From contig CABXDL010000004.1 of NCBI GenBank assembly GCA_902510995.1, forward strand, positions 1,259-65,258: DNA of 64,000 nucleotides, given 5' to 3'. The notes under the pieces are model-generated. The model made no database searches. It had not been told where the DNA came from and was given only the letters and a program-made list of their open reading frames with translations. Positions 4,637 to 36,122 of the stretch are shown here, in pieces (position 1 is the first letter of the stretch; every line of letters begins with the position of its first letter). A program made the translations under genes and the position numbers. The stretch is from an uncultured Candidatus Actinomarina sp. Lineage in GTDB: Bacteria > Actinomycetota > Acidimicrobiia > Actinomarinales > Actinomarinaceae.

Positions 4637-6091
4637 ATGAATGGAAATAAAATACCAATCATATCAACTACTAAGCTTGAAAAAGTTAAAAATTGTAATG
4701 CCTCAAACGCTAAACCAGAGCCTCGAGTTAACTCAGGAACATTAACAAGGTGGGGTATTCTCAATGACGCAATAGGCGATTGGTTGAATAATGATGCCCC
4801 TGAAGAAACTGCAATAAAAAAAGCAGAGAGTGAACACTTTGGAAGCTTTGATGACCTTCAAAAGAGAATATTATCAGATATGTTTAGTGACTTCAGAGTT
4901 CTTTATCCCAAGAGGAAAGCAGAAATTGATATAGACTTTCCAAGCAAAACAGTATTTAAGGAGATTAACGGTGAAGAACATGGCATGTCTGCTTATTTTC
5001 AGTATCAAGTTAGTGATAAAAATACAATTGAAAATATAAAACTAAAAATTGGAAGGCCAGATATTAATGAAATTGATAGAGCAATCTATTCAGCTGATAA
5101 ATTAGAAAATGAAACCTTTTATGCAGGAGCAGTTGCTAATACAGAATTAATTGAGATTGAGGATATAGAAAATCATCAAACTATTATTGATGATTATTTT
5201 GATATCTATGAAGATTTTTTAGAGAATCCAAACAAAACAACTCCTGGGTCACACTGTTTAAGTAAATGTGGTCGACCTGCTGTATGTGGTGAGTTCCCTG
5301 TAATAGGAGATGAAAAAATCAACACACGCTATCGCGGGATAACTGTATCCAAAACTAACATCAGAGATGTCGAGAAGTGTGAAAGAAAAGCATCTTGGAA
5401 TTTCCAGTATTCAATACCAAGAGATAAAGAAGACTCTTTCAGTGGTGATTTTGGAATAACATTTCATAATGTCGCTCAAACAATGCTTGTGAATAATAAC
5501 AATCGAAATGATGAAGGTGAAAAAGAGCGATTGGCATCATTAATTGAGAATGAAGATGACGATACACAAAAAAAGATATTTAAAAAATACGAAGAATTAT
5601 TAGAAAAATTAAAAGGGTATGAGAATTTAGATATTACGTTATCTGAATATCCAGTAGGTTTTACGCCTATAACAGAAGGTCTAATTGCAAATAAAGACTT
5701 AACTGTTAAAGAAGGAAGGGTTGCAACCTCATTTATAGGTAAAGCAGATCTCCTAGGGCGCTTAGATGGTGTACCAATTGTTATTGAATTAAAAACCGGT
5801 AAAAAACACCCAGGAGATTTAACAGAGGCTGAGCTTTATGCTTTAGGTGTATCGAAACGCTTAAAAGCAAAAGAAGTTATTGTTTTACATATTTATGTAA
5901 ATGAAGATAAAGATGAAGCCAATGAACGTAGATTTGGAGAAGATGAGTTCATTTCTATAGAAAAGAAGTTTGAATCCTTTGCTGAAAAAATAGCTTCTTG
6001 GAATCCAAATGATGCTTTATCTCCAAGCTACGAAGTAGGAGATTGGTGTAATTATTGCGAATTTCAAGAAACATGTGCTGAATTTAGATAA
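4637..6091 (+). CDS. PD-(D/E)XK nuclease of the Cas4/AddB (RecB-like) type with Fe-S cysteine clusters; apparent tandem module
   Basis: 484 aa. GKAD371LLG and IVIE384LK386TGKK are typical D...ExK motifs. The C-terminal C471-x2-C474-x5-C480 plus C248 form the Cas4/AddB 4-Cys pattern. A second set is C20 plus C207-x3-C211-x5-C217. Confidence 0.8.
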   Translation: MNGNKIPIISTTKLEKVKNCNASNAKPEPRVNSGTLTRWGILNDAIGDWLNNDAPEETAIKKAESEHFGSFDDLQKRILSDMFSDFRVLYPKRKAEIDIDFPSKTVFKEINGEEHGMSAYFQYQVSDKNTIENIKLKIGRPDINEIDRAIYSADKLENETFYAGAVANTELIEIEDIENHQTIIDDYFDIYEDFLENPNKTTPGSHCLSKCGRPAVCGEFPVIGDEKINTRYRGITVSKTNIRDVEKCERKASWNFQYSIPRDKEDSFSGDFGITFHNVAQTMLVNNNNRNDEGEKERLASLIENEDDDTQKKIFKKYEELLEKLKGYENLDITLSEYPVGFTPITEGLIANKDLTVKEGRVATSFIGKADLLGRLDGVPIVIELKTGKKHPGDLTEAELYALGVSKRLKAKEVIVLHIYVNEDKDEANERRFGEDEFISIEKKFESFAEKIASWNPNDALSPSYEVGDWCNYCEFQETCAEFR

Positions 6092-6130
6092 GGTTATCTT
6101 TACAGTTTTTTTCTTAATATAATTATCTTG

Positions 6131-8380
6131 ATGGACTTATCAAGAACACCAATAGAGCTTGTTGAATCAGTATATAAATCATTAACTGAGAATATTGCAA
6201 CGCTAAGAGAGAGAAAAGGAACTCCCTTAACTCTTGCAGAAAAAATTTTGTTTGGCCATGCTAAAGATCCTTCATCAATTTCATTAGAGAAGGGTGAAGA
6301 TTATGGAGATTTTGCACCTGATAGAGTAGCGATGCAAGACGCAACAGCTCAGATGGCACTTTTACAATTCATGCAGGCTGGAATGGAAAAAACAGCTGTA
6401 CCATCAACTGTTCACTGTGATCACCTTATTCAAGCATATGAAGGTGCTACTAGTGATCTAGAGGTTGCAAATAAAACACATAAGGAAGTTTTTGATTTCT
6501 TACGTTCAGCATCACAAAAATATGGCATAGGTTTTTGGGGACCAGGAGCTGGAATCATACATCAAGTTGTTCTAGAACAGTATGCATTCCCAGGTGGAAT
6601 GATGATTGGTACTGATAGCCATACACCTAATGCTGGAGGTCTTGGAATGGTAGCCATTGGTGTTGGGGGAGCTGATGCAGTAGATGTTATGGCCGGAATG
6701 CCATTTAATACAAAAATTCCAAAATTAATTGGTGTAAAACTTACTGGATCCTTAAGTGGATGGACGTCTCCTAAAGATATAATTCTTAAAGTAGCTGAAA
6801 TTTTAACTGTTAAGGGTGGAACGAATGCAATAGTTGAATATTTCGGTGAAGGAACTACTTCAATTTCAACTACAGGTAAAGCAACTATTACTAATATGGG
6901 CGCAGAAATAGGAGCAACATGCTCAATTTTTCCATTTGATAGTAAAGGACAAGATTATTTAGTTTCAACTGGAAGGTCAGATATTGCAGAGCTTGCAGAA
7001 ACAAGAATGGATTTATTAACTGCAGACCAAGAAGTGTTAGATGAGCCAGAAAAGTATTTCGACCAGGTTATAGAGATAGATTTAGATACTTTAGAACCAC
7101 ATATTGTAGGTCCTCACACACCAGATTTAGCTAGATCAATTACAGATTTGAAAGAAGATGTTGAAGAAAATGAGTATCCAATAAAAATTTCAAGCGCACT
7201 AATTGGTTCATGTACAAACTCTTCTTATGAAGATATTGGTAGAGCAGCCTTTATCGCACGAGAAGCTGCAAAGCATGGTCTTAAAGCAAAAGTTCCATTG
7301 ATGGTCACTCCAGGTTCAGAACAAACAAGAGCAACTATTGAAAGAGATGGTTATTTGAAAGACCTAGAGGATATTGGGGCAACAGTATTAGCAAATGCCT
7401 GTGGTCCATGTATTGGTCAATGGAAAAGAGATGATATTAAAGAAGGAGAGAGTAACTCAATTGTTTCCTCATTTAATAGGAACTTTCCTGCACGTAATGA
7501 TGGGAATGCAGAGACGCTTTCCTTTATTGGGTCTCCAGAAACAGTCATAGGACTAGCACTAGGTGGAAGATTAGATTTTAACTTTTTAAGCGATACATTA
7601 ACTGATAAAAATGGAAATGAAATCTCATTAAGCCCACCGGTTGCTGATGAGTTACCTGATGCTGGATTTGAAACAACTCTTGAAGGATTTATTCAACCAG
7701 AAGAAGGTGAAGTAGAGGTAGTAATCGACCCTGAATCAAATAGATTACAAGCACTAGTTCCTTTCACTCCTTTTGAAAGTGATAATTACCATTCAATGAC
7801 AGTATTAATGAAAGCAAATGGGAAATGTACAACTGACCACATTTCTCCTGCAGGAAAATGGTTGCAGTACAGAGGTCATTTAGAAAATATTTCACAAAAC
7901 TTATTTATCGGTGTTAACAATGCATTTACTGAAAATGCCGGAGAAGGTATAAATCAATTAGATAATTCAGTTATGTCTTTACCAGACATTGCAAAATCAT
8001 ATCATGAAGAAGGACTCAACTGGATAGCAGTTGGAGATGAGAATTATGGCGAAGGGTCTTCAAGAGAACATGCAGCAATGGAGCCAAGATTTAGAGGGTG
8101 TAAGGTTGTTTTAGTAAAAAGCTTTGCACGAATTCATGAAGCAAATCTTAAAAAGCAAGGTATTCTTCCACTGACTTTTGAAAACAAAGAAGACTACGAC
8201 TTGATTGATCAAGAAGATAAAATAACAATTAAAAATTTAGAGGAAATTGCACCTGACGTACCAGTTGTTATATCAATAGAGAAAACTGGTGGAGAGACAA
8301 AAGATATAAAAGCTAATCACTCTCTTTCAGATGAACAAATAGAGTGGTTTAAAGCTGGTTCTGCCTTAAATTCTATATAA
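6131..8380 (+). CDS. acn: aconitate hydratase, short mitochondrial-type (~750 aa)
   Basis: [11 protein letters not shown]...[22 protein letters not shown]...[19 protein letters not shown] and [10 protein letters not shown]. The ORF track starts at TTG 6128; ATG 6131 is more likely. Confidence 0.95.
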
Positions 8381-9698: not shown

Positions 9699-10270
9699 TG
9701 GAAATTTTATTAGCTACTAAAAATAAGAATAAATTTATAGAATTAAAAAATATTTTCGATCATTCAAATTCCCATCATGAAGTTGTTTTTTATCCAGACT
9801 TGATTGATGTTGTAGAAGATAAAGAAACTATTTTTGATAATGCAAAGAAGAAAGCAATTGAGGTATACAACCAGTATGAAAAACCTGTTATTGCTGATGA
9901 TTCAGGTTTATTTGTTGATTCTTTAAATGGCCATCCTGGAGTTAAGTCAGCACGTTATGCAGGAGATGAAGCTAATGACGAAGATAATATTCAAAAGCTA
10001 TTAAATGAAATGGCAAATGAAGAAAATAGAACAGCTTCTTTTAAAACTGTATTGTTTTTTTACGACGGAAAAAATGAATTAACAACAGAAGGAATTTTGG
10101 ATGGTCAAATTACATTTGAGACAAGAGGGGATAATGGATTTGGATATGATCCAATATTTGAATATGAAGAAAGAACCCTTGCAGAACTTTCATTAAATGA
10201 AAAAACAGAGATAAGCCATAGAAATATTGCATGCACTAAGATGGTTGAGTTGTTAAATGAAAAAATATAA
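9698..10270 (+). CDS. rdgB: non-canonical purine NTP pyrophosphatase (RdgB/HAM1 family)
   Basis: ILLATKNKNK..E, ADDSGL.VD.LNG.PGV.SARYAG, RGDNGFGYDPIF and SHR. There is a 1-nt overlap with the rph stop. Confidence 0.9.
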   Translation: MEILLATKNKNKFIELKNIFDHSNSHHEVVFYPDLIDVVEDKETIFDNAKKKAIEVYNQYEKPVIADDSGLFVDSLNGHPGVKSARYAGDEANDEDNIQKLLNEMANEENRTASFKTVLFFYDGKNELTTEGILDGQITFETRGDNGFGYDPIFEYEERTLAELSLNEKTEISHRNIACTKMVELLNEKI

Positions 10271-10937
10271 AAATCTATTAATAATCTTTTTGTGCATACT
10301 CTTTTCTTCATGTCAGGCTGAATGGATTATGGATCTTGAAATTAACGAGGATGAGTCAGGAAAGTATTCTATTTCTATTTTACTAGATCAAGAAGCACAG
10401 ATATTCGCAATAGAAACTGGCCAGACTGAAATAGGAGGTCTGGAATCAATTGTTGAATCTTTGCCTGAAGGTTTTGGTTCAACAGTTTATCAAAAAGATA
10501 AAATGTTTGGAATAATGATACGTAATTCATTTAATAGTATTGAAGAGTTTGAACAACAACTTGATATTTTGTTAAGTGGTGAAAATACTGCATTGTTGCT
10601 CTTGCCTCTTCAGGAAATCAAAATTGAGAAAGATGAAAAAGAATTTAAAGTATATGGAGAATTTTCTGCATTACTTAATGGTGAGAATATTACACCAGAA
10701 GCAGCAGAAAATTTATATTCAGGAAAATTAATGGTAAAAGCACCAGGCAGGGTAACAAAACCAAAATTAGATGAAATAAACAATAATACAATTATTTTTA
10801 CTCATGCAGGATTATTAGAGCAGTCTTTCGAAGTCCAATCTACAACATCAAAAATAAATATTGCACGTATATTGATTTTCAGCATTTTAGCTATAGCAAT
10901 CTATTTTATTGGTAGACAAGCAATAAATAATAAGTAG
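10257..10937 (+). CDS. hypothetical lipoprotein with C-terminal TM anchor
   Basis: Signal/lipobox-like MKKYKNLLIIFLCILFSSC. C-terminal helix ILIFSILAIAIYFIG. It overlaps rdgB by 14 nt. Confidence 0.6.
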   Translation: MKKYKNLLIIFLCILFSSCQAEWIMDLEINEDESGKYSISILLDQEAQIFAIETGQTEIGGLESIVESLPEGFGSTVYQKDKMFGIMIRNSFNSIEEFEQQLDILLSGENTALLLLPLQEIKIEKDEKEFKVYGEFSALLNGENITPEAAENLYSGKLMVKAPGRVTKPKLDEINNNTIIFTHAGLLEQSFEVQSTTSKINIARILIFSILAIAIYFIGRQAINNK

Positions 10938-10949
10938 TATTAATCAATA

Positions 10950-10973
10950 ATGAATATCATAATTATTATTTAA
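10950..10973 (+). promoter_or_regulatory. candidate leader peptide ORF MNIIIII (five consecutive Ile codons)
   Basis: ATG AAT ATC ATA ATT ATT ATT TAA read directly from the sequence. It lies 13 nt after the upstream stop, immediately before a hairpin and terminator in the cimA 5' region. No clear SD. Confidence 0.45.
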
Positions 10974-10974
10974 G

Positions 10975-10995
10975 AACAACGAAATAGTCGTTGTT
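10975..10995 (+). promoter_or_regulatory. leader hairpin (AACAACG / CGTTGTT)
   Basis: Perfect 7-bp stem with a 7-nt loop, starting 2 nt after the leader ORF stop. CAACG could alternatively pair with CGTTG (11003-11007) inside the terminator. Confidence 0.4.
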
Positions 10996-10996
10996 T

Positions 10997-11022
10997 CCCT
11001 TGCGTTGCAGGGGTTTTTTTTT
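10997..11022 (+). terminator. rho-independent terminator / attenuator
   Basis: CCCTTGC gtt GCAGGGG (7 bp, one G-U pair) followed by nine T residues. It ends 12 nt before the cimA ATG. Confidence 0.7.
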
Positions 11023-11034
11023 GGAAGAGAGAAA

Positions 11035-12591
11035 ATGAAGATAGACATATTTGATACAACCTTAAGGGATGGATTCCAGCAGGAAGGAATTTCACCTTCT
11101 GTTAAAGATAAGCTTGCTATTGCTAATTTACTTGATGATCTAGGTGTAGATTATATTGAAGGTGGTTGGCCTGGCGCATCTCCCAAAGAAGAAGAGTTTT
11201 TTGATAAAGCAAAAAAAGAATTAAAGCTTACAAATGCAAAATTAGTTAGTTTTGGCTCTACGAGAAAGCTAAACATAAAGGTTGAAGACGACCCTCAAGT
11301 TAAAGCTTTAGTTGATGCTGGGACAGACTATGTTTGTATTGTTGGTAAATCTTCTAGTTTACACATTACCAAGGCTATAGAAACTGACGTAGAAGAAGCA
11401 ATCAAAATGGCAACAGACACTATTGAATACTTAAAATCAAATGGTAAAAAAGTGTTTTTTGATGCTGAACATTTCTTTGATGGATATAAAGAGAACTCAG
11501 AGGTAAGTTATAAAATCCTTGATGCAGTAATAAATGAGGGTGTTGATTGCTTTATTTTTTGTGATACAAATGGTGGAACCCTTCCTCATGAGGTAACTGA
11601 GATATTAGGTGAGATAACAAAAAAATATGATAAGCAAAAATTTGGAGTGCATTTTCAAAATGACAATGGTTGTGCTGTCCCAAATTCAATGGCTGCTGTA
11701 AACCTAGGAGTAGATCATGTCCAAGGAACTATGAATGGATATGGCGAGAGAACTGGTAACGCTGATTTATGTACTTTGCTTCCAAACTTAACTTTGAAAA
11801 TGGAACATGATACCGTTCCTTTGGATTCTCTTGAAAAATTAACACCGATTGCAAATCATATTGCAGAACTAGTAAATGTAGCTATTGATTCAAGACATCC
11901 TTATGTTGGGTCATCAGCATTTACACATAAAGCTGGCCTACATGCTTCAGGTATGGCGAAAGATAGTTCACTTTATGAACATATCGATTCAAGTAAAGTT
12001 GGGAACTTTACAAGGACAACAGTTTCTGAGCTAGCTGGAAGAGCTAGCGTTATAACAAAAGCAAAAGAATTCAATATTGAACTTTCAAATGAAGATGCAA
12101 AAAAATTAATAGAAGAAGTACAGAATCTTGAACATCAAGGTTTTCAATTTGAAGCTGCTGATGGCTCTTTATATTTATTAATGAATAAGATAAAAGGTTC
12201 AAACCCGGATTATTTTGATTTTGAAAGCTTTAGAGTGTTTTCTGAAAGAAGAAATTCTGAGAATGTTGTTTCTGAAGCTGTTTGCAAGATTAACGTCAAC
12301 GATCAAAGATATGTCACTACGGGTGAAGGAGTTGGTCCTGTTGATGCATTAAGCAAAGCTTTAGTAACTGCCCTTCGTAATGACTATCCAGACATAGAAG
12401 TTGTTAAGCTAATAGACTACAAAGTTAGAATCATTGACTCAACTGATGGAACAGAAGCTACAACAAGAGTGTTAGTTGAGTTTACAGATGGAAAAAGAAA
12501 GTGGAACACTGTAGGGGTGCATCAAAATATTATCAATGCATCTTGGAATGCCCTGTGTGATGGTTTCAATTTTTATTTTATGTCTTCTTAA
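11035..12591 (+). CDS. cimA: (R)-citramalate synthase (IPMS/HCS family with LeuA-dimer C-terminal domain)
   Basis: IFDTTLRDGFQQEGISPSVKDKLAIA..LD.LGVDYIEGGWPGASPKEEEFF, with the length and N-terminus typical of CimA-type enzymes. The start is taken at the ATG preceded by GGAAGAGAG, because the ORF-track TTG 11005 lies inside the terminator. Confidence 0.8.
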   Translation: MKIDIFDTTLRDGFQQEGISPSVKDKLAIANLLDDLGVDYIEGGWPGASPKEEEFFDKAKKELKLTNAKLVSFGSTRKLNIKVEDDPQVKALVDAGTDYVCIVGKSSSLHITKAIETDVEEAIKMATDTIEYLKSNGKKVFFDAEHFFDGYKENSEVSYKILDAVINEGVDCFIFCDTNGGTLPHEVTEILGEITKKYDKQKFGVHFQNDNGCAVPNSMAAVNLGVDHVQGTMNGYGERTGNADLCTLLPNLTLKMEHDTVPLDSLEKLTPIANHIAELVNVAIDSRHPYVGSSAFTHKAGLHASGMAKDSSLYEHIDSSKVGNFTRTTVSELAGRASVITKAKEFNIELSNEDAKKLIEEVQNLEHQGFQFEAADGSLYLLMNKIKGSNPDYFDFESFRVFSERRNSENVVSEAVCKINVNDQRYVTTGEGVGPVDALSKALVTALRNDYPDIEVVKLIDYKVRIIDSTDGTEATTRVLVEFTDGKRKWNTVGVHQNIINASWNALCDGFNFYFMSS

Positions 12592-12643: not shown

Positions 12644-14590
12644 ATGAATGAAAAAATAGAGAATTTATTAAACGAAGATCGTTTATTTGAACCAAGTGAA
12701 GAATTAAAAAATAATGCAAATGCAACATCAGAATGGTTTAAAAATGCTGAAGAAGATAGATTAGAGTACTGGAAGCAACAAGCCCTTAATAGAATAACGT
12801 GGTTTAAAGAACCAACTGAAGTCTTAGATGACTCAAATGCACCATTTTTTAAATGGTTTAGTGATGGGGAGTTAAACCTTTCATATAATTGCCTTGATAG
12901 ACATTTAGAAACAGACGGTGATAGAGTCGCATATTACTGGGAAGGCGAACCTGGAGATACGCAAGAGATTACCTATAGAGATCTTTATGAAAGAGTATGT
13001 AAGTTATCAAATGCACTTAAAAGTTTAGGAGTGCAAAAAGGAGATAGGATAGCTATTTATCTTGGTATGACCCCTGAGATAGTAGTTTCTATGCTTGCTT
13101 GTGCAAGAATTGGAGCAGTGCACTCTGTAGTATTTGGTGGATTTTCAGCCGAAGCACTTTCTGACCGTATAAATGATGCTGAAGCAAAGGTTGTTATAAC
13201 AGCTGATGGTGCATGGAGAAGAGGGGATATTGTTCCTCTAAAAGAGAACGTGGACAATTCCTTAGAGCTAACTGAATTCATAGAAAGTGTGATTGTTGTA
13301 AAAAGAACCGGACAAGAAGTAGATATGAAAGATGGCAGGGATTATTGGTATGAGGAGATTGTTGGAGAGCAGTCTGCAGAGTGTGAGCCTGAAGTAATGA
13401 ATGCAGAAGACTTACTCTACATACTTTATACTTCTGGAACCACAGCAAAACCAAAAGGCATTGTTCACACACAGGCAGGTTATTTAACTGGTGTTACTAC
13501 AACTCATAGTGCAGTATTTGATGTCAAAGATGATGATATTTATTGGTGTGCAGCAGACTGTGGATGGGTTACTGGACATAGCTATATTGTCTATGGACCA
13601 TTAGCTAACAAAACAACAAGTGTTATGTATGAAGGAGCACCAAATGCTCCAGATGAAAAAAGGTTATGGAGCATAGTTGAGAAATATAAAGTAAATATTT
13701 TTTATACAGCACCAACTGCGATTAGAGCATTTATGAAGTGGGGAGTTGAACATCCAAAAGCTCACGATTTAAGTTCACTAAGACTCCTTGGGTCTGTTGG
13801 GGAACCAATAAATCCTGAAGCATGGATGTGGTATCACGAAAATATTGGCAATGAGCAATGCGCTATTGTTGATACATGGTGGCAGACAGAAACAGGATCA
13901 ATTATGATTTCACCTCTACCGGGAATAACAAGTACAAAACCAGGATCAGCATGTGGACCATTACCTGGGATTGATTCTGTGGTTATTGATGAAAAAGGTA
14001 ATGAAGTTGGAAAAGGTGAAGGGGGTTATCTTGCTATTAAGTCTCCTTGGCCGTCCATGTTAAGAACTGTATATGGAGACGATAAAAGATATCTCGATAC
14101 GTATTGGTCACAACACGAAGGTCTGTACTTTGCAGGTGATGGAGCTAAATATGATGATGATGGTTACGTATGGCTACTTGGAAGAGTAGATGATGTAATG
14201 AATATCTCCGGTCATAGAATCTCTACAGCTGAAGTAGAGAGCGCATTAGTTTCTCACGAATCTGTTGCTGAGGCTGCAGTAATAGGAAGGTCTGATGAGA
14301 TAAGTGGCGAAGCAATTGCTGCATTTGTTTCATTGATTGGAACAGATGAAGGAGATGAAAATTTAATATCAGAATTAAGGCAACATGTAAGTGACAAGAT
14401 TGGACCTATAGCAAAACCAAAAAGCATTGTTATTACAGCTGACCTTCCAAAAACAAGAAGTGGAAAAATTATGAGAAGGTTGCTTAAAGATATTTCAGAA
14501 GAAAGAAAATTAGGTGATGTAACAACCTTAGCTAATGCCGATATAGTTTCTGAACTACAGACTCGTTCTAAAGATTCTGACGAGGATTAA
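12644..14590 (+). CDS. acs: acetyl-CoA synthetase
   Basis: 648 aa. YTSGTTAKPKG, WWQTETG, the DD.GY.W..GR.DDV.N.SGHR pattern and PKTRSGKIMRR. Confidence 0.95.
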   Translation: MNEKIENLLNEDRLFEPSEELKNNANATSEWFKNAEEDRLEYWKQQALNRITWFKEPTEVLDDSNAPFFKWFSDGELNLSYNCLDRHLETDGDRVAYYWEGEPGDTQEITYRDLYERVCKLSNALKSLGVQKGDRIAIYLGMTPEIVVSMLACARIGAVHSVVFGGFSAEALSDRINDAEAKVVITADGAWRRGDIVPLKENVDNSLELTEFIESVIVVKRTGQEVDMKDGRDYWYEEIVGEQSAECEPEVMNAEDLLYILYTSGTTAKPKGIVHTQAGYLTGVTTTHSAVFDVKDDDIYWCAADCGWVTGHSYIVYGPLANKTTSVMYEGAPNAPDEKRLWSIVEKYKVNIFYTAPTAIRAFMKWGVEHPKAHDLSSLRLLGSVGEPINPEAWMWYHENIGNEQCAIVDTWWQTETGSIMISPLPGITSTKPGSACGPLPGIDSVVIDEKGNEVGKGEGGYLAIKSPWPSMLRTVYGDDKRYLDTYWSQHEGLYFAGDGAKYDDDGYVWLLGRVDDVMNISGHRISTAEVESALVSHESVAEAAVIGRSDEISGEAIAAFVSLIGTDEGDENLISELRQHVSDKIGPIAKPKSIVITADLPKTRSGKIMRRLLKDISEERKLGDVTTLANADIVSELQTRSKDSDED

Positions 14591-14593
14591 TTC

Positions 14594-15079
14594 TTGGGCG
14601 AAAAAACTTTTACATGGGTAGACCCAAAAGAGCTTTCTGATAGCTTTCTACACTTAGATAGTGATGATAGGAAAAAATTTGTTCTAGATCACACTATGAA
14701 ACCTCCTATAGGTGAGTTGATGAATTTTCAGGGTGTTGAAATAGATGAAGAAGGTTGTGTTACCTGGATCGCTTCTCCACAAGAGTATCATTACAACCCA
14801 CTTGGCAATGTTCATGGAGGTTTTGCTGCAACATTATTAGATTCCTGTAACAGTATTACTGCTAATTGTGCTTTAGATAAAGGTTATGGCACTATGACTG
14901 CTGAAATAAAAGTAAGTTATTTAAGAGGAATATCTTTAGACACAGGAAATATGTTTGCCAAAGGGAAAATAGAGAAACTAGGTAGAAGAGTAATTTTTGT
15001 AAGCGGTAAGTTGACTGATAGTAATGGAACTTTATATGCAACTGCTACATCTACAGAATTAGTAGTAGAAATTAAATAA
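14594..15079 (+). CDS. PaaI/4HBT-type hotdog-fold thioesterase
   Basis: 161 aa. NPLGNVHGGFAATLLDS motif. TTG start 3 nt after the acs stop, with GAGGA upstream. Confidence 0.75.
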   Translation: MGEKTFTWVDPKELSDSFLHLDSDDRKKFVLDHTMKPPIGELMNFQGVEIDEEGCVTWIASPQEYHYNPLGNVHGGFAATLLDSCNSITANCALDKGYGTMTAEIKVSYLRGISLDTGNMFAKGKIEKLGRRVIFVSGKLTDSNGTLYATATSTELVVEIK

Positions 15080-15085
15080 ACTCAG

Positions 15086-15168
15086 TGCGGATGAGAGGAC
15101 TCGAACCTCCACGAGCAAAGCTCACTAGATCCTAAATCTAGCGCGTCTACCAGTTCCGCCACATCCGC
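15086..15168 (-). tRNA. tRNA-Leu (anticodon TAG)
   Basis: Hand-folded cloverleaf: acceptor GCGGATG/CATCCGC, anticodon stem CTAGA/TCTAG with loop TTTAGGA, long variable arm, T-loop TTCGAGT. No encoded CCA. Confidence 0.9.
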
Positions 15169-15180
15169 TAAAATGTCGCG

Positions 15181-15253
15181 TGGGTCGCCGGGGACTTGAA
15201 CCCCGAACCTGCGGATTAAGAGTCCGATGCTCTACCAGTTGAGCTAGCGACCC
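15181..15253 (-). tRNA. tRNA-Lys (anticodon CTT)
   Basis: Acceptor GGGTCGC/GCGACCC, anticodon loop CTCTTAA, T-arm CGGGG TTCAAGT CCCCG. There is one mismatch at the top of the anticodon stem. Confidence 0.85.
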
Positions 15254-15349
15254 TTTCATACAGAGTAACCTATGTAATATTAGTTAACTATAATTTTTTT
15301 GATTTATTGTTTCCATAAAACCAGTATCATGGAACAATAATTAGACGTG

Positions 15350-15424
15350 CGGGCTGTGGCTCAGCTTGGCTAGAGCGCCTGCTTTGGGAGCAGGAGGTCG
15401 TGAGTTCGAATCTCACCAGCCCGA
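15350..15424 (+). tRNA. tRNA-Pro (anticodon TGG)
   Basis: Acceptor CGGGCTG/CAGCCCG, anticodon stem CCTGC/GCAGG with loop TTTGGGA, T-loop TTCGAAT. Confidence 0.9.
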
Positions 15425-15429
15425 CGCAC

Positions 15430-15500
15430 GCGGGTGTAGCTTAGTGGTAAAGCTCCAGCCTTCCAAGCTGGCTACGAGGGTTCGATTCCCTTCACCCGCT
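15430..15500 (+). tRNA. tRNA-Gly (anticodon TCC)
   Basis: Acceptor GCGGGTG/CACCCGC, anticodon stem CCAGC/GCTGG with loop CTTCCAA, T-loop TTCGATT, discriminator T. Confidence 0.85.
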
Positions 15501-15504
15501 CAAG

Positions 15505-15578
15505 GCTCTCGTAGCTCAAACGGATAGAGCAACAGACTTCTAATCTGTAGGTTATAGGTTCGAGTCCTATCGAGAGCG
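15505..15578 (+). tRNA. tRNA-Arg (anticodon TCT)
   Basis: Acceptor GCTCTCG/CGAGAGC, anticodon stem ACAGA/TCTGT with loop CTTCTAA, T-loop TTCGAGT. Confidence 0.9.
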
Positions 15579-15585
15579 CAGACGT

Positions 15586-15661
15586 GGTGATCGTAGCTCA
15601 GTCTGGTTAGAGCGCCTGGTTGTGGTCCAGGAGGTCGCGGGTTCAAATCCCGTCGGTCACC
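15586..15661 (+). tRNA. tRNA-His (anticodon GTG) with genome-encoded G-1
   Basis: An extra 5' G pairs with discriminator C. Acceptor GTGATCG/CGGTCAC, anticodon stem CCTGG/CCAGG with loop TTGTGGT, T-loop TTCAAAT. Confidence 0.9.
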
Positions 15662-15679
15662 CAAAATTTAAGGAGAATA

Positions 15680-16999
15680 GTGAAATATAAGATAAAAAAT
15701 AATTCTGATTTTGAAAAAACATTGGAAATTCAAGTTGATATAAAAGATTTAGTAGATTTTAGAGAAGAGGCAATTAAGAAAATTGGAAGTCAATTAAAAA
15801 TAAAAGGATTTAGACCTGGAAAGATTCCTGCAAACATTGTCGAAAGAGAAGTAGGAGAAGAATATATTAACGAAGAAGCTGTAGAAATGTATCTACCTGA
15901 AAATTTATTTACAATTCTTAAAGATGAAGAAATTTCACCTGCAACAAGACCAGCTATTAAAGAGATTAAGAAAAAAAAGAACTCTTTCGATGTTGAAGTA
16001 CTTATAACCTTGTGGCCTAAAATTTCTAAATTACCAAAGCTTGACCAAACTGTTGAAGTTGAGTCAATTAAGCCAACAAGTGAGGAAATTGATGATCAAA
16101 TAGAAAGAGTGAGATCACAATTTGCTGAAGCAACCAAAACGGATAGAGCAGTTAAAACTGGTGATTATGTGTTAATTAACTTAACCTGCACAAAAAATAA
16201 TAATGAGATTAAAGATTTCACTTTTAGTGATCGTTTATACGAAGTAGGAACCGGTTCTTTAATAAAAAGTCTTGATAGTAAATTAGAAGGTGTTGCTTCT
16301 GGAGCGATAATTAAATTTACAGATAATATTGAACAAATTAATGAGGAAAATGTTGATGTTACTGTTTTAGTAAAAGAAGTAAGAGAAAAGATACTTCCAG
16401 ACTTAACTGATGAATGGGTCTCTGAAACAACGGAGTTTTCAGATATTAAGGAACTAAAGTCTGAATTAGAAAAAAATATTGAGAACGTCAAAAAACAACA
16501 AGTTTCGTCTCAATATCAAGCAGGACTAACAACAAAATTAATAGAAGAAGCGGATGTAAAATTACCTGAGCAGTTAGTTGTTGCAGAAATGGATAGTATT
16601 TTGCAAAATTTCTTAGCTGAATTAGAGCAAAATAATATTAAATTAGAAGACTATTTCAAAATAACTGGATTAACTGAAGAAGCTTTGAGGGAAGACTTAA
16701 ACCAACAAGCTTCTAGGAACTTAAGCATGGTGTTGATATTAGATAAGGTTATTGAAGATTTTGAAATAAAATTAAATGACAATGATAATTCTCTAATAGA
16801 GGAACATATGGAATCTCACGATAGTGATAAAGATGAGGTTGAAAATACTACCCATAGGATGAATTTAGAGGCAGAATCATTAAGAAATAAAGCTATGTTA
16901 CATATTTTGCAACATGGTGTGTCAATTGATAAAAATGGTGAAAAAGTAAACCTACAGGATGTATACAATCAAGAGAGTGAAACAGGAGAGGAAGAATAG
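15680..16999 (+). CDS. tig: trigger factor
   Basis: FRPGK.P motif ([15 protein letters not shown]) and domain order typical of Tig. Start reassigned to GTG 15680 (AAGGAG 6 nt upstream) because the ORF-track start at 15620 lies inside tRNA-His. Confidence 0.9.
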
Positions 17000-32702: not shown

Positions 32703-33944
32703 GTGTTAAAAGAAATAGGCGAAAAAGCAATAATTGCTTCAAAACAAATAAACCAATTAGATACAGATAAAAAGAATAATCTTATTAATGATATGTCTGA
32801 GCAGCTTATTAAAGATTCTGATTTAATATTAAAAGCAAATAAAAAAGATCTTGATAATGCTAATGAACTAGACCTTTCATCATCTCTAGTTGATCGTTTA
32901 ACTTTAACTAGGGAGAGAATTGAAGGTATGAGTAATGGTTTAAAAAAGATTATTCCACTTAAGGATCCTGTAGGTGAGGTAACGAAATCATGGACAACTG
33001 ATGATGGACTTAATATTAATAAAGTAAGGTCTCCTTTTGGAGTTATTGGAATAATCTATGAAGCAAGGCCTAATGTTACCAGTGATGTTTCAGCCCTTTG
33101 CATCAAGTCTGGTAATGCAGTAATTTTAAAAGGCTCTAGTTATTGTTTAGATTCTAATTCTGAAATACTAAATTCTTTACAAAAAACATTAGAAAAAAAT
33201 AAAATTAATAAAGATGCTATCCAGCTTATTAAAAGTAAGGAAAGAGAAGATACTATAAAATTTATGAAACTTACTGAATGTATCGATTTAATTGTTCCTA
33301 GAGGAGGGAAGGGTTTAATTAATACATTAGTAGATAATGCAAAGGTTCCATTTATTTTAGACGGAGATGGCAATGTGCATCTTTATGTACATGATGACGC
33401 AAATCCCAAATATATAATCGATATAATTATTAACTCAAAAGTGCAAAGACCAGGAGTGTGTAATGCTCTTGAAACTTTGATATTAAATAAATCCATATAT
33501 CAAAATATGGGTAAAGAAATCATAAATGAACTACTTAAAAATGATGTTGAGCTTTTTGTAGATGAAATAATAACCACTGAATTCCCAGATCTAGAAATAG
33601 CTAACGATGATCATTATATGACTGAATTCCATGATTTAAAGTTAGCAATTAAAATTGTTGATGACTTGGATGAAGCAATACAGCACATAGAAAAATATTC
33701 CTCAGGCCATACTGAAGCAATAATTTCTGAATCTAATGAAGTAGCAAATATATTTTCTAAATCTATAGATTCCTCAGTTATTTTTATTAATGCTTCTACA
33801 AGGTTTACAGACGGTGAAATGTTTGGTTTTGGTGCCGAAGTAGGAATTAGCACTCAGAAATTGCACGCTAGAGGTCCAATGGGATTAGAATCTTTAACAA
33901 ACGAAAGATATGTTGTTGAAGGGTCAGGAACAGTAAGAAAATGA
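32703..33944 (+). CDS. proA: gamma-glutamyl phosphate reductase
   Basis: GVIGIIYEARPNVT, LKGS, CNALETLIL and GHTEAI.S. GTG start. Confidence 0.92.
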   Translation: MLKEIGEKAIIASKQINQLDTDKKNNLINDMSEQLIKDSDLILKANKKDLDNANELDLSSSLVDRLTLTRERIEGMSNGLKKIIPLKDPVGEVTKSWTTDDGLNINKVRSPFGVIGIIYEARPNVTSDVSALCIKSGNAVILKGSSYCLDSNSEILNSLQKTLEKNKINKDAIQLIKSKEREDTIKFMKLTECIDLIVPRGGKGLINTLVDNAKVPFILDGDGNVHLYVHDDANPKYIIDIIINSKVQRPGVCNALETLILNKSIYQNMGKEIINELLKNDVELFVDEIITTEFPDLEIANDDHYMTEFHDLKLAIKIVDDLDEAIQHIEKYSSGHTEAIISESNEVANIFSKSIDSSVIFINASTRFTDGEMFGFGAEVGISTQKLHARGPMGLESLTNERYVVEGSGTVRK

Positions 33945-34774
33945 AAATTAATGATCTAACTATAGATGGGCTAGAGCAAGAAAACTATTTTGCAACTCAG
34001 GAACTTATCGATGTTATTAACGCTGCAATATTTCTAGATAAGCCTTTATTGATTGAAGGTCCGGCAGGTACAGGAAAAACTTTTTTAGCTAAGACACTTT
34101 CTGCATTACTGAATTTAGAGCTTATAAGACTTCAATGTCATGAAGGAATTGATGAAGATAAATCGGTTTATGAATGGAATTACAAAAAGCAACTTTTATC
34201 AATACAAAAAAGTGAAGAAAATGAAAATCTTTTTGATGAAAAGTACTTAATTAAAAGACCTATTTTGACTGCTTTAACTACTGAAGAAAACTCACTTTTT
34301 TTAATCGATGAAATTGATAGATCAGATGAAGAGTTCGAAGCTTTACTATTGGAAGTTCTTGCTGAAAATCAAGTTACAATTCCAGAGTTTGGAACAATAA
34401 AAGGTAGTGAAAATAGAATTACAATTCTTACCTCTAACAGCACGAGGGAGTTGTCAGATGCTCTTAGAAGAAGATGTATATATTATTATCTAGATTTTCC
34501 GTCTATTGAAATTGAAACTAAAGTTTTCATGAACAGTATTGAAGATATAGATGAAAATGAAGCCAGAAAATATGCCTCTCTTGTATCGTTTATCAGAAGC
34601 TTAAGTCTTAATAAAATTCCTTCTTTAATTGAGTCTGTTGAGTGGGTTAAATATAATAACTCAAAAGATCAAGAATCAGTTAGATCTAATCTAGGTATAT
34701 TATTAAAAGATAAATCTGATCAAAAGAAATATGTAGAAAAACTAGAAGAGTCTAATGAGTTTAACCAAGAATGA
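33941..34774 (+). CDS. MoxR/CoxD-like AAA+ ATPase (AAA_5)
   Basis: LLIEGPAGTGKTFLAKTLS...LIRLQCHEG.DE...YEWNY, and Walker B LFLIDEIDR. ATGA overlap with proA. Confidence 0.85.
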   Translation: MKINDLTIDGLEQENYFATQELIDVINAAIFLDKPLLIEGPAGTGKTFLAKTLSALLNLELIRLQCHEGIDEDKSVYEWNYKKQLLSIQKSEENENLFDEKYLIKRPILTALTTEENSLFLIDEIDRSDEEFEALLLEVLAENQVTIPEFGTIKGSENRITILTSNSTRELSDALRRRCIYYYLDFPSIEIETKVFMNSIEDIDENEARKYASLVSFIRSLSLNKIPSLIESVEWVKYNNSKDQESVRSNLGILLKDKSDQKKYVEKLEESNEFNQE

Positions 34775-36122
34775 AATTTTAAATTTTTCTAATTTTTGTA
34801 AAAGTAACAATTATTTTATTCCAACAGACCAACTTAAAGTATTTTTCGAATATAAGAATCTCAAAAATTTAAAAAATTTAGAAAAAGAACTTCTTTATTT
34901 ATATTTTTTAATTCCTAAAAATAGAGAGGATCAGATTCATCTTAAAAATTTAATTAATAGATACTTCAATCATTCAATTGAAAATAATGACTCAACAAGT
35001 TATTCGTTATTGAGTGAATATTCTAATGACGATAGTGATCTACAGCAGATTATCTCAGATTTAAATGCTGGAAATTATGAAAATTTTGATACCCTTGTAA
35101 AAAGTGTAATTGAAAATTTTGGTGATATAGATTTTTCAAGACCAGTATCAAATGATTATTGGTTAAATCAAATAAAAAAAAGTCTTAAATATCAAGAAAC
35201 TATGATGTTATTTTCTAATTATGAATTTGATGAAGTTTCATCTATTACTAATTTAATAAATAAAAATAAATTTAATGATTTATTAGATATGAAGATACTA
35301 GAAATCTTGAGTGAGGAAAGAAATAAAGCAAAAGATTCATATCAACCATCAGAACTTGAACCAAAAACACAATTAGGAGAATTAGATTTCCTTTATACAG
35401 ATCCAAATGAAAGAAGAATTCTATTAGAACAAACTTATAAGCTAGGAAATAAATTAGCTATAAAATTTAAAAGACACATAAAACAAGCTAGTAAGGGAAA
35501 ATTGCATTTTAGAAAAACAATTAGAAAGTCTATGCAAACAGGTGGAATCTTCCACAAAATTATAATGAGACCAAAATTATTACGAAAACCCAATCTAGTT
35601 ATAGCTTGTGATATAAGTGGTTCAATGGCTTTGTATTCACTTTTTGGCATAACGCTATTGTTTGGGATGGTAAGTAGATTTAGCTCAATTAAAGCTTTTG
35701 TATTTATAGATGGTTTAACAGATGTAACAAAAACATTGAAAAAATTAAAAAAGAATGAAATTGATTCTGTTTTACATAATTGGAACAGTTATGTAAAAAG
35801 TGATGGACATTCTGATTATGAAAAATCATTTCAAGATTTAATAGATCAAAATAAAAAGCTAAATTCTACAACGAAGAGTCTTATTGTTATAGGGGATGGA
35901 AGAAATAATTATAGAAATATATCTGAAGAACTTATTAATAATTTATATAATCAATTTGAAAAAATTTATTGGATGAATCCTGAAAAGAAAAAGTATTGGG
36001 ATACAGGAGACAGTCAAATAAGTAAGTTTGAAAGAATAACTAAAACAACTTCTGAAGTTCGGAATTATAATCAATTACGTGATTTTGTGAACAATATAGA
36101 TTTTAAAAAGATGTTGAAATGA
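34755..36122 (+). CDS. VWA domain protein, CoxE-like (MIDAS DxSxS)
   Basis: Basic stretch then LVIACDISGSM (nt 35610-35627), later LIVIGDGRNNY. 20-nt overlap with the moxR-like gene. Confidence 0.8.
   Translation: MSLTKNEILNFSNFCKSNNYFIPTDQLKVFFEYKNLKNLKNLEKELLYLYFLIPKNREDQIHLKNLINRYFNHSIENNDSTSYSLLSEYSNDDSDLQQIISDLNAGNYENFDTLVKSVIENFGDIDFSRPVSNDYWLNQIKKSLKYQETMMLFSNYEFDEVSSITNLINKNKFNDLLDMKILEILSEERNKAKDSYQPSELEPKTQLGELDFLYTDPNERRILLEQTYKLGNKLAIKFKRHIKQASKGKLHFRKTIRKSMQTGGIFHKIIMRPKLLRKPNLVIACDISGSMALYSLFGITLLFGMVSRFSSIKAFVFIDGLTDVTKTLKKLKKNEIDSVLHNWNSYVKSDGHSDYEKSFQDLIDQNKKLNSTTKSLIVIGDGRNNYRNISEELINNLYNQFEKIYWMNPEKKKYWDTGDSQISKFERITKTTSEVRNYNQLRDFVNNIDFKKMLK

Follow-up and report, generated by a model that had tools for sequence, protein, structure and literature searches.

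Organization of the cimA Leader

The 64-kb window analyzed here, that is, the whole stretch of 64,000 nucleotides (nt) taken from contig CABXDL010000004.1 of an uncultured Candidatus Actinomarina, has a guanine-plus-cytosine (GC) content of 30.5% and carries a cimA gene that is directly preceded by a compact leader element containing a short isoleucine (Ile)-rich open reading frame (mini-ORF), a hairpin, and a terminator. The product of cimA, proposed to be a citramalate synthase in a first-pass annotation, matched the corresponding equivalog model TIGR00977 at 637 bits (cutoff, 450), and the tblastn alignments of relatives begin at residue 1, which corresponds to the ATG at 11035. The closest CimA genes among species-representative genomes were those of uncultured Candidatus Actinomarina, with 79–81% identity, followed by those of metagenome-assembled genomes of Acidimicrobiia, with 47–55% identity, and a CimA on a metagenome contig reached 92% identity. 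The features of the locus are as follows.

10257–10937, + strand: upstream ORF; stop codon TAG, ending 60 nt ahead of the terminator
10913–10918, + strand: −35-like hexamer TAGACA, within the 3′ end of the upstream ORF (promoter scan)
10935–10940, + strand: −10-like hexamer TAGTAT, with a 16-nt spacer to the −35, overlapping the TAG stop of the upstream ORF
10947–10950, + strand: predicted transcription start, giving a leaderless messenger RNA (mRNA) or one with a 3-nt leader (from the position of the −10)
10950–10973, + strand: leader mini-ORF MNIIIII*, ATG AAT ATC ATA ATT ATT ATT TAA (direct reading)
10956–10970, + strand: run of five Ile codons, ATC ATA ATT ATT ATT, the proposed sensor (sequence, chance scan, family peptides)
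10974–10996, + strand: hairpin 1, 9 base pairs (bp), loop AAUAG, core AACAACG/CGTTGTT at 10975–10995 (RNAfold, covariation)
10997–11013, + strand: terminator stem-loop CCCUUGC-GUU-GCAGGGG, with a 0-nt spacer to hairpin 1 (fold, covariation)
11014–11022, + strand: U9 tract, the predicted termination point (sequence, terminator scan)
11023–11034, + strand: cimA translation-initiation region GGAAGAGAGAAA, with a weak purine-rich stretch resembling a Shine–Dalgarno (SD) sequence (sequence)
11035–12591, + strand: cimA, citramalate synthase, the proposed regulated gene (TIGR00977)

The mini-ORF, the hairpin, the terminator, the T9 tract, and the cimA ATG were all found where the first-pass annotation had placed them; its 7-bp hairpin is indeed present at 10975–10995 and is extended by RNAfold to 9 bp (10974–10996). 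Hairpin 1 begins 3 nt past the last Ile codon, immediately after the stop codon, and the terminator, a 7-bp GC-rich stem followed by U9, ends 12 nt 5′ of the cimA ATG. The attenuated transcript is predicted to be ~73–76 nt in a leader of ~75 nt. In comparison with shuffled sequences, the stability was −8.5 kcal/mol for hairpin 1 (z −4.2), −9.4 kcal/mol for the terminator (z −3.3), and −18.1 kcal/mol for both jointly (z −5.1), and each hairpin folded independently.

A scan of all six frames of the window found a single run of at least five Ile codons, which is the leader run. The leader also holds the sole mini-ORF in the window in which an ATG is followed by four or more Ile codons and a stop, where Markov-1 simulations expect 0.14 per window. 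This rarity is suggestive only, by itself merely mildly unusual, and it is the conservation described below that carries the case beyond chance. The leader also supplied the one clean terminator (a GC stem with a T run of T5 or longer) on the + strand of the window, which holds ~50 genes, and no further attenuators or clean terminators were found across the window. At the Rfam gathering thresholds, tRNAs (transfer RNAs) alone reached the scores in the window and in 14 relatives, and a permissive scan of 10880–11060 gave best matches of 10–23 bits, far under the thresholds, with no T-box or curated family. As a separate observation, canonical gene-end terminators seem to be rare in this genome.

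Predicted Promoter and Leaderless Start of the Mini-ORF

The promoter-like site lies at a fixed distance from the mini-ORF, with a −35 of TAGACA in Actinomarina-like loci and TTGACN in high-GC relatives. A −10 of the form TAnTAT or CATACT ended 6–10 nt 5′ of the mini-ORF start in 55 of the 62 scored leaders, and the high-GC relatives showed the arrangement TTGACN-17-CATACT, an exact CATACT being present in 42/62. The distance from the −10 to the start codon was 8–10 nt in high-GC leaders, where the start was mostly preceded by a pyrimidine, and 6–9 nt in Actinomarina-like loci (9 nt in the window). No SD sequence was present ahead of the mini-ORF in the leaders scored, and none fits between the −10 and the ATG; the spacing implies an mRNA that would be leaderless or nearly so. 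A leaderless start is usual for actinobacterial leader peptides (PMC8079986; PMC3890552), and documented examples from Streptomyces have hairpins and a U stretch downstream of the peptide ORF (PMC8079986). In the locus designated L081 (loci are given by L numbers), an additional ATG lies exactly 6 nt past the −10, and the equivalent triplet of the window is ATA.

In Actinomarina-like relatives, the cimA ATG is situated 4–12 nt past the U tract, and cimA therefore has no promoter of its own. The earlier assertion that cimA must be transcribed through the terminator was thus upheld, as the terminator and cimA are too close together to accommodate a promoter, and a conserved promoter-like site precedes the mini-ORF.

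Two observations concern the boundaries of the leader. Its predicted promoter is located inside the end of the upstream ORF, with a −10 that contains the stop codon of that ORF, an instance of signal packing in a streamlined genome. At the other boundary (11014–11037 in the window, and the equivalents in L001, L002, L003, and L086), cimA has little or no SD sequence, for example UUUUUUUUUAGAUAUG, and in read-through transcripts a folded terminator would fall in the 30S binding region of cimA.

Conservation of the Leader across Acidimicrobiia

All of the Actinomarina-like loci (14/14) contained a promoter-like site (TAGACA-N16-TAnTAT), an Ile-run mini-ORF, hairpin 1, and a terminator, in the same order and ahead of cimA. 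The leader peptides included MMNIIIII, MINFIIII, MKKIIIII, MQKIIIIV, and MKIIGIIIM; hairpin 1 was CAACG/CGTTG with variable loops, and the terminator was CCCTTGC/GCARGGG followed by T8–9. Insertions and deletions in the mini-ORF among these close relatives were multiples of three (a GGA insertion, an additional ATG codon), the stop varied among TAA, TAG, and TGA but was always in frame, and the start shifted with the frame kept. This pattern is the signature of a translated frame and not of a conserved DNA word. The upstream gene differed in L027, L082, L083, and L085, where the whole leader was retained; the leader is thus a part of the cimA unit and not of the operon ahead of it, which agrees with the first-pass proposal that the terminator is a regulatory element and not just the end of the upstream gene.

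The mini-ORF, the hairpin, and the terminator were also kept in dozens of Acidimicrobiia of 60–70% GC, in which CimA is 49–55% identical. The high-GC relatives encode peptides of the form ...IIII-x-stop, and their mini-ORFs (MFMPVAIIIIV, MTARYDIIIIA, MTTNPTWTIIIIE, MHHFFDGIIIID) are located 70–125 nt 5′ of cimA and are followed by a GC-rich hairpin and a terminator. Ile runs are compositionally improbable at 60–70% GC and yet were kept, which removes the reservation, made in the first-pass annotation, that such a codon run can arise by chance in an AT-rich genome. That annotation had also pointed to orthologous leaders as the place where the mini-ORF or the terminator might prove to be missing; both were kept in the 14/14 close relatives and in the dozens of high-GC Acidimicrobiia.

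A covariance model (R1), which extends from the fifth codon ahead of the stop to the U tract, with hairpin 1 and the terminator as stems of 10 bp each, matched 63 of the 80 species-representative loci and 102 of the 161 sources overall, all on the cimA strand; the metagenome loci have just 1.5 kb of flank, and their match count is a lower bound. The window had one match, at 10956–11025, with 44 bits. The matched element sits before cimA, leuB-cimA, or leuB-ilvE-cimA. In Acidimicrobiales-type loci, the match was located 2.0–2.3 kb 5′ of cimA, before leuB-ilvE-cimA (747–826 in L047; also L034, L059, L064, L065, L072, and others), and in L043 and L044 (~1812–1887) the leader preceded leuB-cimA. 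These operon-type leaders, ~2 kb upstream, are missed by a pattern search for III runs right upstream of cimA and are found by the covariance model. Their peptides mix valine (Val) and Ile, as in MRALSAPVIVIA and MGQHHRVIIIS. The positions before leuB-ilvE-cimA and leuB-cimA suggest therefore that the family controls a small Ile operon and not cimA alone. Across 79 leader peptides, Ile accounted for 240 of the 474 residues at the last six positions, and 75 of the 79 had at least two Ile among their last six residues; the peptide is conserved solely as an Ile-rich C-terminus.

The high-GC leader peptides (L004–L144) had threonine (Thr) as their second commonest residue, at 13.8% of all residues and 19% of the non-Ile residues, above alanine. 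Thr often stood right before the Ile run, as in TTTIIIT and TTTTIIIIE, and the window peptide is without Thr. This Thr-rich stretch recalls the Thr and Ile codons of Escherichia coli thrL and, by analogy, suggests a possible co-sensing of Thr. A further observation was made in L067, where a second model match (6500–6574, 40.7 bits) lies ~2 kb downstream of cimA, encodes MTNTPLTTVLLIT, with Val, leucine (Leu), and Ile, and precedes a 316-residue ORF without a Pfam or NCBIfam match; it may be a sister attenuator of another branched-chain gene.

Covariation, Geometry, and Codon Choice

The two stems were supported by covariation. In the model-fitted alignment (A2), 90.8% of the paired cells were complementary, in comparison with 74.5% in column shuffles and 40–52% with slid partners. 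Changes on both sides were found in 19 of the 20 pairs, namely, all 10 pairs of hairpin 1 and 9/10 of the terminator, and the covariation score was 0.468 versus 0.204 for shuffled columns, a value reached by 0/500 shuffles. Single-sequence folding, which is independent of the alignment, showed that 65 leaders contain 64 different versions of hairpin 1, with 4–6 pair types per stem position. A plain MAFFT and RNAalifold alignment (A1) had recovered the terminator alone, with hairpin 1 mis-registered, and it was the covariance model with re-alignment that resolved hairpin 1.

The spacing of the elements was strict in the 67 leaders measured. The Ile run was separated from the stop by 0–2 codons, the distance from the last Ile codon to the first paired base of hairpin 1 was 3–6 nt in 59/67 (mode, 5; window, 3), and the spacer between hairpin 1 and the terminator was 0–4 nt in 63/67 (window, 0). 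With zero codons after the Ile run, hairpin 1 lies just past the stop, and with one codon, hairpin 1 overlaps the stop; because the hairpin thus shifts relative to the stop, what is held is the distance to the last Ile codon. The entire hairpin 1 falls between the stop and the terminator across the family, and in the window the stop (10971–10973) lies 23 nt 5′ of the terminator stem. The median stability in the leaders was −17.7 kcal/mol for hairpin 1 and −16.5 kcal/mol for the terminator, so that hairpin 1 matches the terminator in stability. The rare codon AUU made up 29% of the Ile codons in high-GC leaders versus 8% in the adjacent cimA coding sequence, a difference whose p-value is inflated by relatedness, and in these leaders AUU was restricted to the last two Ile positions.

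Search for an Antiterminator

The first-pass annotation had suggested an alternative pairing, CAACG:CGTTG (11003–11007), that would disrupt the terminator, and had recommended folding the region for mutually exclusive structures. No such structures were found, and the two hairpins share no segment. The suggested pairing had a stability of −2.7 kcal/mol versus −18.1 kcal/mol for the two-hairpin fold, with a pair probability of ~1e-10; it lost even with the 3′ arm of hairpin 1 blocked, and it was broken in the closest relative, L081 (loop GUC), and absent in other clades. With ribosome footprints modelled at each successive codon, in the window as well as in nine relatives, the minimum free energy fold kept the terminator at every position, and as the modelled ribosome neared the stop, hairpin 1 was the only structure lost in these 10 leaders. 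We also tested pairings with the terminator in 65 leaders, namely, those of the 3′ arm of hairpin 1 (with the 5′ or the 3′ arm of the terminator), the 5′ arm of hairpin 1, and the ORF tail. None of these cross-pairings beat the shuffles (median z 0.0 to +1.2), and if anything they were depleted; in the same duplex test the arms of hairpin 1, paired with each other as the positive control, gave z −4.3. Textbook attenuator logic is therefore not applicable, since no antiterminator was found.

Two other candidate structures were rejected. A long-range pairing between the Ile region and the SD region of cimA was present in L016 and not in the other modelled leaders, and an extension of hairpin 1 into the 5′ arm of the terminator via the stop-codon region gave, by eye, 3–4 inconsistent pairs.

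Proposed Mechanism and Alternative Explanations

The conserved Ile run, the terminator, and the cimA operon context support the first-pass idea of an Ile-codon leader as the sensor for cimA, and on this comparative evidence the leader is very probably an Ile-sensing leader-peptide attenuator. Taken as a whole, the explanation that the cimA leader acts as an Ile-responsive, ribosome-mediated transcription attenuator of cimA, and probably also of the downstream acs and thioesterase genes, appears likely to us.

The mechanism that we propose is as follows. A promoter overlapping the end of the upstream gene would start the transcript at, or no more than 3 nt from, the AUG of the 7-codon ORF. With ample Ile-tRNA, the ribosome would reach the stop and unwind hairpin 1, the loop and 3′ arm of which would become slack single strand, and this slack of 13–25 nt would allow the terminator to be completed inside RNA polymerase, so that transcription would stop at ~11022. 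With scarce Ile-tRNA, the ribosome would wait in the Ile run with its mRNA entrance up against a still-folded hairpin 1, the base of which would lie at +10 to +13 from the P site, whereas at the stop, one or two translocations on, 4–8 bp of hairpin 1 would be opened. As the base of the terminator is only 0–4 nt from hairpin 1, completing the terminator stem would drag the junction, while still held by the ribosome, into the exit channel of the polymerase; the lowest terminator pairs would be sterically blocked, and the polymerase would read into cimA. Hairpin 1 would thus serve as a tether-shortening device that replaces an RNA antiterminator. Counted from the P-site codon (first base), the ribosomal helicase site lies at a distance of ~11 nt. 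From the footprint geometry it would follow that, with the polymerase at the U tract, starved and replete ribosomes differ in nothing but the status of hairpin 1. Hairpin 1 may also pause the polymerase and thereby synchronise it with the ribosome; a by-eye check for a consensus polymerase pause signal 10–12 nt past hairpin 1 gave inconsistent results. A ribosome held near a terminator is known to repress it, and termination efficiency increases with distance (PMC4824070). The steric model agrees with this distance dependence (PMC4824070), but the folded hairpin would here shorten the effective distance. We offer steric blocking only tentatively as the right physical mechanism, rating it somewhat below an even chance, and a general use by Acidimicrobiia of an antiterminator-less attenuator, in which a hairpin between the ORF and the terminator turns the ribosome position into a steric signal, seems to us less likely than not.

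Several points weigh against the proposal. We know of no experimental precedent for a steric role of an abutting upstream hairpin, and the constraint folds of 10 leaders and the cross-pairings of 65 leaders yielded no mutually exclusive antiterminator. The polarity, in which starvation leads to read-through, is argued from pathway logic. Alignment A2 was fitted to the model, which favors structure, and the sequences are phylogenetically related, which inflates the p-values. The −10 of the window is 9 nt ahead of the ATG, and the mRNA may carry a leader of 2–3 nt. Tandem hairpins have instead been described as terminators (PMC8355165). In Streptomyces coelicolor, mutation of the putative regulatory codons of the ilvB leader left regulation unaffected (reported in PMC1262725), and actinobacterial leaders of such a look are not always attenuators.

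The leader could instead work as a classical attenuator, in which a stalled ribosome frees a segment that pairs with the terminator, for example, CAACG:CGUUG at 11003–11007. This 5-bp complementarity does exist in the window and in relatives of the L027, L087, and L090 types, which share the GUU loop; however, the pairing is broken in L081 and absent in the L002, L003, L086, and L001 types, the terminator is preferred over it (−18.1 versus −2.7 kcal/mol) even with the 3′ arm of hairpin 1 blocked, and the ribosome is able to mask the 5′ arm but not to set it free. With the terminator in the minimum free energy fold at all ribosome positions in 10 leaders, and with cross-pairings at a median z of at least 0 in 65 leaders against −4.3 for the control, we regard an antiterminator as very improbable. 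Even less credible is an ordinary end-of-operon terminator of the upstream genes combined with a chance AT-rich mini-ORF. The upstream ORF does end 60 nt ahead of the terminator, and the genome has 30.5% GC, with 0.14 mini-ORFs per window in simulations, but the element stays with cimA under different upstream genes (L027, L082, L083, L085), occurs in genomes of 60–70% GC where Ile-codon runs are improbable, is preceded by a conserved promoter between the upstream gene and the mini-ORF, and ends 4–12 nt before a cimA that lacks its own promoter; this reading is refuted by the comparative data.

The same parts could also operate with the reverse logic, hairpin 1 and the terminator forming a strong tandem terminator and a finishing ribosome melting hairpin 1 and lowering termination, so that cimA expression would rise with translation capacity or Ile supply. 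The footprint modelling gives this some basis, in that hairpin 1 is open with certainty once the ribosome stands at the stop; terminators are repressed by a ribosome that closely follows the polymerase (PMC4824070), and tandem hairpins have been proposed as terminators (PMC8355165). It would, however, have an Ile-codon run raise an Ile-biosynthetic enzyme under plentiful Ile, and it accounts neither for the Ile run being held 3–6 nt from hairpin 1 nor for the enrichment of the slow AUU codon near hairpin 1. Such a logic would be, to our knowledge, opposite to that of every characterised amino-acid leader (trp, his, ilv, thr), and we consider it improbable. Also quite improbable is a factor acting in trans on the two hairpins, be it an RNA-binding protein or a put-like RNA that modifies polymerase, with the mini-ORF being incidental or a tuner of mRNA stability. 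Put-type RNAs bind polymerase, and stem-loops 0–4 nt apart recall them; furthermore, no RNA switch is visible in the leader. On the other hand, pairing alone is conserved and not the stem or loop sequences, which leaves little for sequence-specific recognition; across genomes of 30–70% GC, the frame, the C-terminal Ile run, and the spacing of this run from hairpin 1 are kept; and the second hairpin, followed by a U tract, is a terminator of the usual kind.

Comparison with Known Leaders

The enterobacterial leaders of ilvGMEDA (ilvL), ilvBN (ivbL), and the thr operon (thrL) have ORFs rich in the codons of the end products (Ile, Val, and Leu; Thr and Ile in thrL), are 140–200 nt long and SD-initiated, and form overlapping 1:2, 2:3, and 3:4 helices. 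The cimA leader shares with them an Ile-codon ORF, an intrinsic terminator before the first biosynthetic gene, and the proposed use of ribosome position as the sensor, and the high-GC relatives resemble thrL in having Thr-rich peptides ahead of the Ile run. Unlike them, it is ~75 nt long and predicted to be leaderless, its two hairpins have no common segment, and no antiterminator is detectable; the gene proposed to be regulated is here cimA, for the pyruvate route to 2-oxobutyrate. Of the features of trp/his/ilv-type attenuators, a leader ORF with tandem codons, an intrinsic terminator, and a downstream pathway gene (cimA; leuB-ilvE-cimA) were thus present, and an antiterminator helix was not found.

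The pyrBI leader of E. coli also has no antiterminator helix, and a ribosome close behind the polymerase blocks the terminator hairpin (refs 16 and 18 in PMC4824070); its leader ORF runs through the terminator, and its signal is polymerase pausing dependent on uridine triphosphate. The cimA leader is like pyrBI in lacking an antiterminator helix, but its ORF does not extend into or through the terminator. It stops 23 nt before it, the signal would be the Ile-codon run, and the intervening distance would need to be spanned by a folded hairpin.

Among actinobacterial leaders, those of Corynebacterium glutamicum ilvB, leuA, and trpE and of Streptomyces lividans ilvL, trpL, and leuL have an ORF at the 5′ end without an SD sequence (PMC8079986; PMC3890552), the arrangement predicted for the cimA leader. 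They share with the cimA leader an actinobacterial host and one or two hairpins with a U stretch 3′ of the ORF; the cimA leader differs in belonging to the class Acidimicrobiia and not Actinomycetes, in the regulated gene, in a pure C-terminal Ile run, and in its strict spacings (Ile run to hairpin, 3–6 nt; hairpin to terminator, 0–4 nt). Seliverstov et al. reported actinobacterial ilvB leader peptides with terminators but with missing attenuator components, in which the ORF overlaps the terminator hairpin (PMC1262725), whereas the cimA leader ORF ends ahead of hairpin 1. The leaderless polycysteine short ORFs of mycobacteria have a run of codons for a single residue near the stop and act as amino-acid-responsive attenuators of the downstream operon (10.1101/834739; PMC1262725); they have no conserved terminator hairpin (PMC1262725), in contrast to the cimA leader, of which a canonical terminator and another conserved hairpin form integral parts.

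Within the literature searched, nothing relevant was found on a leader peptide, attenuator, or T-box of cimA or citramalate. Our comparisons point to an uncurated family of leaders that spans the class Acidimicrobiia and is non-classical in architecture; the window copy would be a ~75-nt miniature of it. The window provides a concrete candidate regulatory element for isoleucine synthesis in an uncultured marine Candidatus Actinomarina, and the citramalate (pyruvate) route to isoleucine is predicted to be under leader-peptide control across the examined Acidimicrobiia loci. The tight geometry without an antiterminator offers a natural system for how an actinobacterial leader peptide and a terminator regulate without alternative helices. 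At ~75 nt, the leader would, if the prediction is true, be very small for an amino-acid attenuator and lend itself readily to reconstitution or engineering. If true, the steric reading would make ribosome-mediated attenuation work here by a physical mechanism of its own and might explain the incomplete leader-plus-terminator elements of other Actinobacteria.

Gene Neighborhood and Other Features of the Window

On the same strand, the genes 5′ of the leader were those for aconitase, pdxH, rph, and rdgB, followed by the 226-residue ORF without a family match that immediately precedes the leader. The features downstream of cimA are as follows.

12644–14590, + strand: acs, acetate–coenzyme A ligase (family match)
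14594–15079, + strand: hotdog thioesterase (family match)
15086–15661: cluster of six tRNA genes (four +, two −)

The 52-nt gap between cimA and acs contained no hairpin, and no terminator-like site was found between these genes. The order cimA-acs-thioesterase followed by the tRNA cluster was retained in L001, L002, and L027, and acs and the thioesterase gene are probably co-transcribed with cimA.

Elsewhere in the window, a 484-residue ORF (4637–6091) had a weak C-terminal Cas4-like (PD-(D/E)XK) match of 26 bits (cutoff, 65), and the Rfam scan of the entire window gave no CRISPR array. Adjoining ORFs in 33941–36122 had sub-threshold matches to a MadB-family AAA ATPase (238 bits; cutoff, 475) and a MadC-family VWA protein (83 bits; cutoff, 600). 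The aconitase (6128–8380) fits the “mitochondrial-type” equivalog TIGR01340 (1064 bits; cutoff, 825) and not AcnA or AcnB. The listed trigger-factor ORF (15620–16999) has a TTG start at 15620 that overlaps the last tRNA, and the family match begins at residue 32; its true start is probably near 15710.

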